Made by a program: the position numbers and the translations under genes
The notes under the pieces: model-generated
Seen by the model: the letters and a program-made list of their open reading frames with translations, nothing else
Told to the model about the DNA's origin: nothing
Databases searched by the model: none
In this document: positions 28,977-29,132 of the stretch, piece after piece
How the letters are laid out: each line of letters opens with the position of its first letter
Position numbering within the stretch: the first letter of the stretch is position 1
DNA from: Oscillospiraceae bacterium
GTDB lineage: Bacteria; Bacillota; Clostridia; Oscillospirales; Acutalibacteraceae
Length of the DNA: 64,000 nt
Direction: 5' to 3'
Assembly: GCA_015066095.1 (NCBI GenBank)
Contig: SVPC01000003.1
Span: 1,407-65,406 of the forward strand

Positions 28977-29132
28977 GGCATTGAGCACGAGCGCGTCCTG
29001 TGGACGATACAGCGAGTGCGAAATGGTGCAGCGGTCAAAAAAATTCGGTGCTCCAAGCCGAAAATTTTTTCGGGCACCGCAAGAGGGCACGCAGCCGAGT
29101 CATTACTCTGATTTAAAGACAGTTGAATAGAT
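28977..29132 (+). ncRNA. unclassified structured non-coding insert fused to the truncated tRNA-Ser 5' copy (homologous to 35388-35531 on the minus strand)
   Basis: No credible ORF. Helices: CATT-GA-GCAC/GTGC-GA-AATG, CGTCC-TGT-GGACG, GCGGT/ACCGC, and an A/T-rich hairpin capped by TGCTCCAAG. It shares the identical blocks GCAGCGGTC, GCTCCAAGCC, TTTCGGG and ACCGCAAGAG with the tRNA-Leu-linked insert. Confidence 0.6.

Follow-up and report, generated by a model that had tools for sequence, protein, structure and literature searches.

We analyzed a stretch of 64,000 nucleotides from an Oscillospiraceae bacterium (assembly GCA_015066095.1, contig SVPC01000003.1, positions 1,407 to 65,406 of the forward strand; hereafter, the window) and found that two inserts beside its tRNA genes, designated S and L, are members of an uncatalogued family of structured modules with an unusual tRNA-nested arrangement. 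Members of the family are repeats that are interspersed, in many copies, in the genomes of Oscillospirales and some relatives. The module is an optional insert in loops or junctions of other hairpin-forming non-coding DNA, and at tRNA loci it lies in a truncated duplicate of the tRNA gene, with the intact copy alongside on the same strand. We read it as a structure-constrained, repeated and probably insertional non-coding module of ~115 nt that is co-transcribed with tRNAs, and we give this reading a probability of roughly 0.55.

Module S occupies positions 28977-29087 of the window on the + strand, and module L occupies positions 35421-35531 on the - strand. The covariance model of the family (R1, described below) matched S at 28973-29087 (107.7 bits, E 2e-22), where the fold is supported by covariation in the family, and L at 35421-35537 (107.0 bits, E 3e-22); these were the sole R1 matches within the window. 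S consists of a P1 domain (about 28977-29029; an outer helix with tandem G.A, a GA-rich internal loop and a 5-bp hairpin), the linker GGUGCA, a long hairpin P2-P3-P4 with the loop GCUCCAA, and the tail AAGAGGG. The architecture of L is the same, with an outer helix that is fully Watson-Crick. The two modules can be aligned over ~115 nt, and their helices differ in sequence with complementarity retained: the outer helix is CATTGAGCAC/GTGCGAAATG with tandem G.A in S and CTTTTGCGCC/GGCGCAAAAG in L, the 5-bp hairpin is CGTCC-TGT-GGACG in S and CATCC-GGC-GGATG in L, and the pairing of an A/T-rich helix is kept in each. Four blocks, GCAGCGGTC, GCTCCAAGCC, TTTCGGG and ACCGCAAGAG, are identical in S and L. 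An earlier note on this DNA had described six elements in a common order, and all of them are present in the sequence at the positions given there. The last, a CACG(C)AGC followed by an AT-rich tail, does not belong to the shared motif, as it is variable across the family and lies outside the conserved module; in S and in Leu-type copies this stretch looks like a remnant of the 3' part of a tRNA. The folding of single sequences was unremarkable (z -1.1 for S and -2.7 for L), and the case therefore depends on comparison between sequences.

A three-block pattern scan of reference genomes, one per species, yielded at least 118 loci, nearly all of them in Oscillospirales (Acutalibacteraceae, Ruminococcaceae, Oscillospiraceae, Faecalibacterium and Subdoligranulum), together with Anaerovoracaceae; several loci per genome and tandem pairs occur among the loci listed. 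Two true homologues on viral contigs were obtained by a two-block pattern search. We aligned 92 non-redundant copies, wrote a consensus structure and built the covariance model R1, with which 126 copies in 100 sources were matched, so that a homology search did return members beyond the first two. The view that the motif fits no known class also held, as Rfam 15 gave no match at the gathering threshold or at E values up to 10. At this E value neither the riboswitch, ribozyme, T-box, tmRNA, signal recognition particle (SRP), RNase P and 6S families nor the Y RNA, HEARO and ROOL/GOLLD families matched over S or L. Nothing relevant to the module was found in the literature, including by a search on the sequence blocks, and none of the passages on tRNA, repeats or mobility retrieved from motif-discovery papers describes it.

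Covariation was computed on the 126-copy alignment fitted to R1, a procedure that favours the modelled structure; the gap between the observed covariation and the controls is large despite this fitting. Standard pairs made up 94.9% of the pair cells, compared with 31-49% when the partners were slid by 1-3 columns, and changes on both sides were found in 26 of the 34 pairs. The covariation score was 0.409, compared with 0.03-0.06 in controls, and was reached by 0 of 500 shuffles. In an independent mutual-information scan, the top column pairs with at least 83% standard pairing were all modelled helix pairs, and the remaining high-scoring pairs were one-column offsets of modelled pairs with few standard pairs. 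The pairings proposed from S and L are thus preserved in the 126 homologues, and these values bear out the proposal that selection has acted on a nucleic-acid fold, as opposed to a recent duplication.

In the consensus, the outer helix of P1 has an interruption, which is tandem G.A in S and G.G in most copies. Next comes an internal loop, with GA(A)NCG on the 5' side opposite AGN'GA on the 3' side, and its N/N' pair covaries (G-C 78, C-G 27, A-U 4, U-A 2). The loops beside the hairpin, previously called asymmetric, are therefore partly paired, with 5' GA-N-C-G facing 3' A-G-N'-G-A. The P1 domain also holds a 4-nt bulge (AURM) and the 5-bp hairpin with a triloop. Beyond the family linker GGCGCA, P2 (GCGGU/ACCGC) is invariant and therefore untestable by covariation; the GCGGT/ACCGC helix described earlier is present, yet it gains neither support nor contradiction from covariation. 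P3 is a strongly covarying helix of 9-10 bp, the P4 loop is GCUCCAA, and the module closes with a single-stranded tail, AAGAG. The module starts with (G)GCAUCG and ends with CAAGAGG, and the two ends are not complementary as read from the alignment (no inverted-repeat scan was run). Two further structural proposals were considered. An extra pseudoknot, in which the linker GCGC would pair with GCGC of the loop or the tail GAG with CUC of the loop, was rejected, as it showed no covariation and variants break its pairing. A kink-turn or box C/D reading of the GA-rich loop did not appear to fit in register, as judged only by inspection of the consensus, in which the tandem G.A adjoins the outer helix and the 4-nt bulge AURM adjoins the hairpin stem, an arrangement other than the canonical kink-turn register.

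The structure was also compared at individual orthologous loci. At L128, which was the sole orthologous locus obtained from a metagenome scan, the order is tRNA-Ser(TGA), truncated copy with module, and tRNA-Ser(GCT), as at S. The promoter region, spacers and tail of L128 have diverged, and compensatory changes are found in four helices. U-A pairs take the place of tandem G.A in the outer helix of P1, the G-C of the internal loop has become A-U, two pairs differ in P1b, and P4 is changed as well. The pairing between the 3' remnant of L128 and its 5' fragment has shifted to a new register (GTAGTAC/GTACTAC), and the leader portion is conserved between the two organisms in each repeat copy. Purifying selection on structure at a stable locus would produce such a pattern. 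The L arrangement is found with a few substitutions at L042, where the promoter of L is conserved; the L042 repeat is 42 nt long (20 of leader and 22 of tRNA), of which L in the window keeps ~28-35 nt. An empty allele of the S locus was not found: exact-protein look-ups of two neighbouring genes were unmatched, and the only metagenome ortholog is filled.

We next describe the tRNA-derived flanks. A tRNA gene was found within 300 nt of 59 of the 131 copies, in every case on the same strand (opposite strand, 0), and roughly half of the copies lack a tRNA gene within that distance. The tRNAs involved represent 12 species: Pro (TGG, CGG, GGG), Leu (CAG, TAG, TAA, CAA), Ser (GCT, GGA), Met, Asn and Trp. 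With Pro, Met, Trp and Asn among them, the link extends beyond class-II tRNAs. The expectation of an invariable fusion to 5' fragments of class-II tRNAs accordingly fails in three ways, because other tRNAs occur, because 3' fragments with antisense arms occur, and because about half of the copies lack a tRNA gene in the vicinity. Two layouts were distinguished. In layout 1, to which S and L belong, the module is directly preceded by some leader and tRNA positions 1-21/24 or 1-37 in sense orientation, and the intact tRNA begins 24-80 nt beyond the module, or at a greater distance in tandem units. In layout 2, an intact tRNA and its terminator are followed by an antisense tRNA segment that spans the junction, a short sense piece, the module, and a sense 3' part (from positions 36-75 through to the 3' end) that runs to CCA; the antisense segments cover, for example, positions 29-62, 21-66 or 58-85, and reach 46 nt. 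The junctions lie at positions 22-24, 37, 36-52 and 71-75, in or beside loops (after the D arm, anticodon, variable loop, T loop), and many partial tRNA copies begin or end near the mature tRNA ends. At none of the 131 loci does the module interrupt a full tRNA. A fixed target duplication of ~42 nt, suggested by S, L042, L007 and L046, was discarded because the flanking repeats measure 21-53 nt over all loci.

In the window, the first direct repeat copy of S (28924-28976, +) consists of leader and tRNA-Ser(GCT) positions 1-24 (28953-28976) and abuts the module; the second (29123-29175, +) consists of leader and the first 24 nt of the intact tRNA-Ser(GCT), and the two are 94% identical. The corresponding copy at L (35532-35566, -) consists of a short leader and tRNA-Leu(CAA) positions 1-22 (35532-35553), also abutting the module, and this 35-nt repeat is 91% identical to 35360-35394. 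The flanking tRNA repeats had been described as perfect, which holds for the last 43 nt at S (28934-28976, identical) but neither for the whole 53-nt repeat of S nor for that of L. Holding only tRNA positions 1-24 and 1-22, the copies beside S and L are not functional tRNA genes; over the S and L units, ARAGORN and the Rfam tRNA model called only the intact neighbours, namely tRNA-Ser(TGA) upstream of S (28830-28916, +; 56.4 bits with Rfam), tRNA-Ser(GCT) downstream of S (29152-29245, +; 51.2 bits) and tRNA-Leu(CAA) downstream of L (35295-35381, -; 50.3 bits).

Judged by its sequence, S looks like a copy of tRNA-Ser whose middle, about positions 25-57, is missing and has been replaced by the module. 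Its tail GAGTCATTACTCT (29097-29109, +) pairs in the minimum-free-energy fold with 28953-28964 (GGAGUAGUACUC), and, given its similarity to CGAGTCTCTCCTACTCC, it is probably what remains of the tRNA-Ser T-loop and acceptor 3' strand. The closing helix is 12-13 bp long, and the z-score of the flank duplex against shuffles is about -3. In the Leu-type copy L055, the module is followed by CGCCCGC-A, which in the fold is paired with the acceptor 5' strand of the tRNA fragment. The tail of L, CACGAGC (35415-35421, -), might be a decayed acceptor 3' strand of tRNA-Leu, which reads CACCGGC in the intact gene.

With respect to transcription, a promoter-like site (28788-28816, +; TTGACT-17-TAAAAT, 10 of 12 matches, identified by consensus match only) precedes tRNA-Ser(TGA), and the S unit ends after tRNA-Ser(GCT) in a terminator-like hairpin (29245-29276, +), which has a 13-bp stem and then a T run. 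Before it, just one further terminator-like match was found on the + strand, at 29044-29062, and this lies inside the module (P4 hairpin and 3' strand of P3). Because no terminator-like hairpin outside the module was found before 29245, S is probably within the tRNA transcript. On the - strand, the L unit runs from the tRNA-Trp terminator (35683-35650) through a promoter-like site (35590-35618, -; TTGATT-17-TATAAT), which is conserved in the ortholog L042, to the truncated tRNA-Leu copy, the module and tRNA-Leu. Neither at S nor at L was a terminator-like hairpin found between the module and the downstream tRNA. Since each module thus stands between a promoter-like site and an intact tRNA without an intervening terminator, both are most likely contained in a tRNA precursor.

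Copies away from tRNA genes show what else the module is inserted into. In Vescimonas fastidiosa MM35, the 861-kb replicon NZ_AP023416.1 holds at least 21 places detected by BLAST, and a 40-kb stretch of it (L126, 733817-773919) contains six model matches, all intergenic; there is no tRNA gene in the whole of this stretch. At least three of these six copies are nested in a hairpin of the repetitive extragenic palindromic (REP) type, GGGCCGATG...CATCGGCCC-CTACGG, whose stem covaries (GGGACGATG/CATCGTCCC). The surroundings of the module copies in L126 are dense in REP-like palindromes, GGGCGACC-GCAA-GGGTCGCCC followed by CTACGG, and a bacterial small SRP RNA is located at 10196-10295 of the same stretch. 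In Anaerovoracaceae, the module was found within a CTCCCTC...GAGGGAG hairpin, and one genome of Acutalibacteraceae has three copies with ~70 nt of common upstream sequence and a common downstream hairpin.

Filled and empty sites were compared by joining the flanks of each copy and searching them against all loci. The filled sites L016, L027 and L081 have empty counterparts at L019, L039 and L037, and further pairs are formed by L113 with L039/L081, by L057 with L012/L115, by L115 with itself and by L024/L038 with L096. The filled sites shown have a G run or a terminal G before the module, whose own end is CAAGAG(G/A). A conserved carrier repeat was seen in several genomes, with and without the module: AAAGTTTTGGTCAAGCTTTTACAAAAGCTTGYRGGG is followed by a variable hairpin with a 3-nt loop (L019 5636-5692 and 2672-2734; L039 3932-3989; L037 1601-1669; also L016, L027 and L081). 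It may be a separate small structured repeat or an element of 3' untranslated regions.

From these results we infer that the fold is that of an RNA, that insertion is the way in which the module spreads, and that the P1 domain, which is common to other module types (see below), is a protein-binding handle. The purine-rich non-canonical loops, together with the strict co-orientation with tRNAs, favour the tRNA-sense strand as the RNA; conserved non-Watson-Crick purine loops such as tandem G.A and an A-rich bulge are typical RNA motifs. In the mechanism that we propose, the module would be made as RNA within a tRNA precursor, and RNase P, in cutting the downstream tRNA at its 5' end, would free it; the 12-13-bp helix between the retained acceptor strand and the 3' remnant would then close the RNA of S. 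New copies would probably be formed when a small unit bearing a terminal tRNA segment recombines and thereby restores the gene, as in a Campbell-type event. A single crossover in a 5'-terminal or 3'-terminal segment would give layout 1 or layout 2, respectively, with the gene left intact.

Several observations weigh against this interpretation. The wobble cells (64 G.U and 52 A.C) favour neither strand, and a hairpin acting at the DNA level therefore agrees with them as well. The orientation of the module relative to neighbouring protein genes is random, and the transcription and processing of the modules are deduced from the layout. The filled/empty pairs have no clean target-site duplication, so that either insertion or deletion accounts for the polymorphism, and with flanking repeats that vary in length across loci no single cut-and-paste geometry fits. 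In L, 5 of the 7 tail positions would pair, and flank complementarity is not above chance. A universal closing helix, to which selected folds had pointed, was rejected over the family: 60-nt flanks had a median z of -0.47, compared with -0.07 in controls, and the helix holds for S and for copies with antisense arms and not for most copies. The origin of the antisense arms of layout 2 is left unexplained by the recombination model, as is the gain of new tRNA specificities.

As a first alternative, the module could be a selfish element at the level of DNA, in which the two imperfect hairpins are recognition structures in the single-stranded DNA of a non-autonomous transposon, and RNA is irrelevant. 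Such a transposon could be a palindrome-associated element of the IS200/IS605 type (IS, insertion sequence) or a passenger in REP hairpins moved by a REP-associated tyrosine transposase (RAYT). We regard this as rather unlikely. In its favour, the module is multi-copy and non-coding, lacks terminal inverted repeats and a constant target duplication, follows a G run or terminal G at the filled sites shown, and has wobble pairs that do not favour an RNA strand. The Vescimonas copies stand in the loop of a REP-like hairpin that is followed by CTACGG, and this motif contains the complement of GTAG, the hallmark of RAYT-type REPs. The co-orientation with tRNAs could equally mirror the direction of replication. 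Compared directly with IS200/IS605 ends, the module offers two imperfect hairpins and no duplication, and at most of the junctions inspected its 5' flank terminates in G or a G run, from which no fixed tetranucleotide emerged. It differs from miniature inverted-repeat transposable elements and IS ends in that the flanking repeats of 21-53 nt contain no target-site duplication of fixed length. Against a DNA element, no transposase gene lies beside any of the at least 118 loci, and no autonomous tnpA/tnpB copy with module ends was found by ORF (open reading frame) clustering at the loci listed, whole genomes not having been searched. The compensatory changes at fixed orthologous loci amid diverging spacers argue for lasting selection at the locus, and the conserved purine loops of the tRNA-sense strand are of a kind typical of RNA.

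The neighbouring proteins bear on this and the following alternatives. We clustered the ORFs around the at least 118 genome loci and 27 viral loci and found no recurrent neighbour protein linked to the module. Among the loci listed, the clusters comprised spurious ORFs over the module or tRNA, ABC-type transporter-like proteins (10 loci) and recombinase-like proteins (4 loci), the last two names being our own judgement of the sequences; no reverse-transcriptase cluster occurred among the module neighbours. An RT-6 RNA was seen at L073 (1725-1798, -; 50.6 bits), ~270 nt from a module copy at a tRNA-Pro-derived site; this is a single case among the loci scanned, and the RNA probably belongs to an island at the same tRNA that is unrelated to the module.

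Miniature integrative units, or scars thereof, at the attachment (att) sites of tRNA genes form a second alternative, which we consider improbable. The repeats would then be of the attL/attR type, the integrases would act in trans, and the module would be cargo or else a structure beside attP to which an integrase or excisionase binds. A partial tRNA repeat with a restored gene is the classic outcome of integration at tRNA genes, and such a partial direct repeat does flank the insert, with the gene restored. Tandem units also occur, prophage-like ends are found at the same tRNA in L004, L023, L105 and L073, and an unrelated insert (module B, below) occupies the same layout at other tRNAs. However, one integrase family would use a fixed site, whereas many junction positions, spread over at least 12 tRNA species, are used here. 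The 150-250-nt units carry no integrase, and a recombinase-like ORF family was present at only the 4 loci among those listed. Nor does integrase chemistry explain the antisense arms, and about half of the copies have no tRNA within 300 nt, some being in repeat hairpins unrelated to tRNAs.

An RNA agent aimed at tRNAs, either a ribozyme or guide RNA that pairs with the cognate tRNA through its tRNA-sense and antisense arms or a mobile RNA that becomes joined to tRNA fragments and returns to DNA by reverse transcription, is very improbable in our estimation. Its attraction lies in the antisense arms of up to 46 nt, which span the position of the junction in the uninterrupted tRNA, in the junctions in or beside tRNA loops, in the many partial copies that start or end near mature tRNA ends, and in the invariant single-stranded tail AAGAG at the 3' junction. 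It is opposed by the lack of a recurrent reverse transcriptase nearby, the RT-6 RNA being a single case, by the 18-20 nt of leader or trailer in the repeats of S, L042 and L046, which are therefore not copies of mature tRNAs, by the lack of a match to a ribozyme family in Rfam, and by the existence of copies without any tRNA flank. Neurospora mitochondrial retroplasmids are a precedent for tRNA-linked integration through hybrid cDNAs. On the most far-reaching reading, which we consider improbable, the module could be the core of an RNA-based mobile or tRNA-directed agent, with tRNA-copied or complementary arms that would invade or pair at loops and be written back beside the intact gene; if true, this would be a protein-free, intron-like or guide-like tRNA-specific element of a kind not described in bacteria. 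Finally, a cis-regulatory leader (riboswitch, attenuator or antitermination element) that controls the downstream tRNA would suit the position of S and L between a promoter-like site and an intact tRNA and the two helical domains with invariant junction nucleotides, but is highly improbable, as 21 of the 59 tRNA-adjacent copies lie only downstream of a tRNA and its terminator, many copies are unrelated to tRNAs, and L has no alternative terminator/antiterminator after the module.

The P1 core was also found joined to a different second hairpin that ends in ACGGUG, in Vescimonas and at 26 viral-contig loci (L127 2720-2959, +; L147 5387-5700, +; L129-L154; L126 9195-9306 and 14065-14175). Such modules are common on viral contigs from gut samples, and some are in tandem arrays of 2-3 units with a period of 101-108 nt. 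They had no Rfam match when the L127 array was searched at E values up to 1 and L126, L139 and L147 at the gathering threshold, and, by ORF clustering at the viral loci, no neighbouring protein in common. The 'viral contig' copy L004 (1150-1420) has to its left no more of tRNA-Met than the last 12 nt (CCCCCGCAACCA), followed by the terminator and module that stand at the chromosomal locus L036. By this comparison, a prophage meets the host chromosome at tRNA-Met, the module belongs to the host side of that junction, and the provirus call extended past the attachment site; L004 was accordingly rejected as a viral copy.

Other inserts share the tRNA-nested layout. Module B, an unrelated insert of ~90 nt in layout 2, has hairpins with four-base loops (for example GAAG, GGAG or TGAA), a TAYAAT stretch and AGCGYAGCGAGC, and occurs at L024 (about 4650-4980, -), L064 (about 670-830, -), L087 (1324-1490, +) and L124 (about 4180-4330, -). 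The order here is intact tRNA, terminator, antisense T-arm piece, insert and sense tRNA 3' end with CCA; module B is in tandem in L024, and it had no Rfam match. A third insert of ~65 nt, TCTCGGCTGCCGCCTCGGTCG...GGACACCCGC, splits the T loop of a module-bearing truncated tRNA-Pro copy, which thus holds two nested inserts (L076 about 4000-4190, -; L073 about 2200-2290, +; also L082 and L103). Because module B and the third insert share this layout, tRNA-nesting is more general than the present module. At L021 (about 2650-2900, +), a module-bearing tRNA-Trp fragment is followed downstream by GATTACATAC / GTATGTAATC repeats in a run that looks, from its sequence, like an array of protein-binding sites (arm-type sites or iterons).

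The genes around S and L in the window are housekeeping genes: phosphotransferase system (PTS) EIIC, endonuclease III, Lit, branching enzyme, ZIP, YicC and PriA. The window also contains three riboswitch aptamers, FMN (61148-61261, +; 116 bits), THF (21995-22092, -; 83 bits) and ZMP/ZTP (19137-19216, -; 64 bits), which score well over the Rfam gathering scores and are ordinary for a Clostridia chromosome.

If the module is a real RNA, it represents a widespread, uncatalogued structured family of gut and rumen Clostridia, with more than 120 copies and strong covariation. That P1 is common to at least two other module types, including tandem arrays on phage-like contigs, points to a common protein or RNA partner. 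The antisense arms that span the junction are unexplained by known integrase or transposase chemistry, and tRNA nesting could reveal a new route by which small non-coding elements colonise tRNA genes without destroying them. The units also create tRNA pseudogene fragments and long repeats, and may confuse annotation and the calling of prophage boundaries, as at L004.

Among known systems, REP/BIME, ERIC, BOX and the Bacillus cereus bcr repeats are likewise multi-copy, non-coding, intergenic and hairpin-forming; some bacterial interspersed repeat families show compensatory changes, and the module is itself nested in REP-like hairpins. Compared with these repeats, the module is far more elaborate, as its fold of two domains includes invariant loops and an internal loop rich in G and A; it is neither palindromic nor bounded by terminal repeats, and often lies in truncated tRNA copies with sense or antisense arms. 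The att-site duplications of prophages and integrative elements resemble it in having an intact tRNA with a direct repeat of its 5' or 3' part and tandem arrays. In contrast to these, the insert here is only ~150-250 nt long, has no integrase, involves many junctions and tRNA species, and carries antisense arms and a conserved structured module. The tRNA introns (group I introns of bacterial anticodon loops, bulge-helix-bulge introns of archaea) share a structured insert at tRNA loops and a guide-like complementary arm, but the flanks of the module do not sum to one tRNA, the working tRNA is a separate intact gene, and there is neither an Rfam match to group I introns nor a group I core, as the module has the helices P1 and P2-P4 only.

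In tRNA-like scaffolds (the tmRNA domain, the mascRNA of MALAT1, engineered scaffolds), an RNA is closed by a tRNA acceptor strand and its 3' complement, as in S and L055, and such a closing helix would give tRNA-type processing sites; unlike these scaffolds, S and L have no T arm, anticodon arm or encoded CCA, and are uncalled by ARAGORN and by the Rfam tRNA and tmRNA models. ROOL and GOLLD are structured RNAs that are often located beside tRNA genes and in prophages and are possibly co-transcribed with tRNAs (PMC5737381). Like the module, ROOL is associated with the rumen and gut; in contrast, ROOL and GOLLD are several hundred nt long and are Rfam families that remained unmatched here, with no reported fusion to tRNA fragments. 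In kind, the module is an interspersed structured repeat or a tRNA-linked non-coding RNA, and the family itself is uncatalogued.

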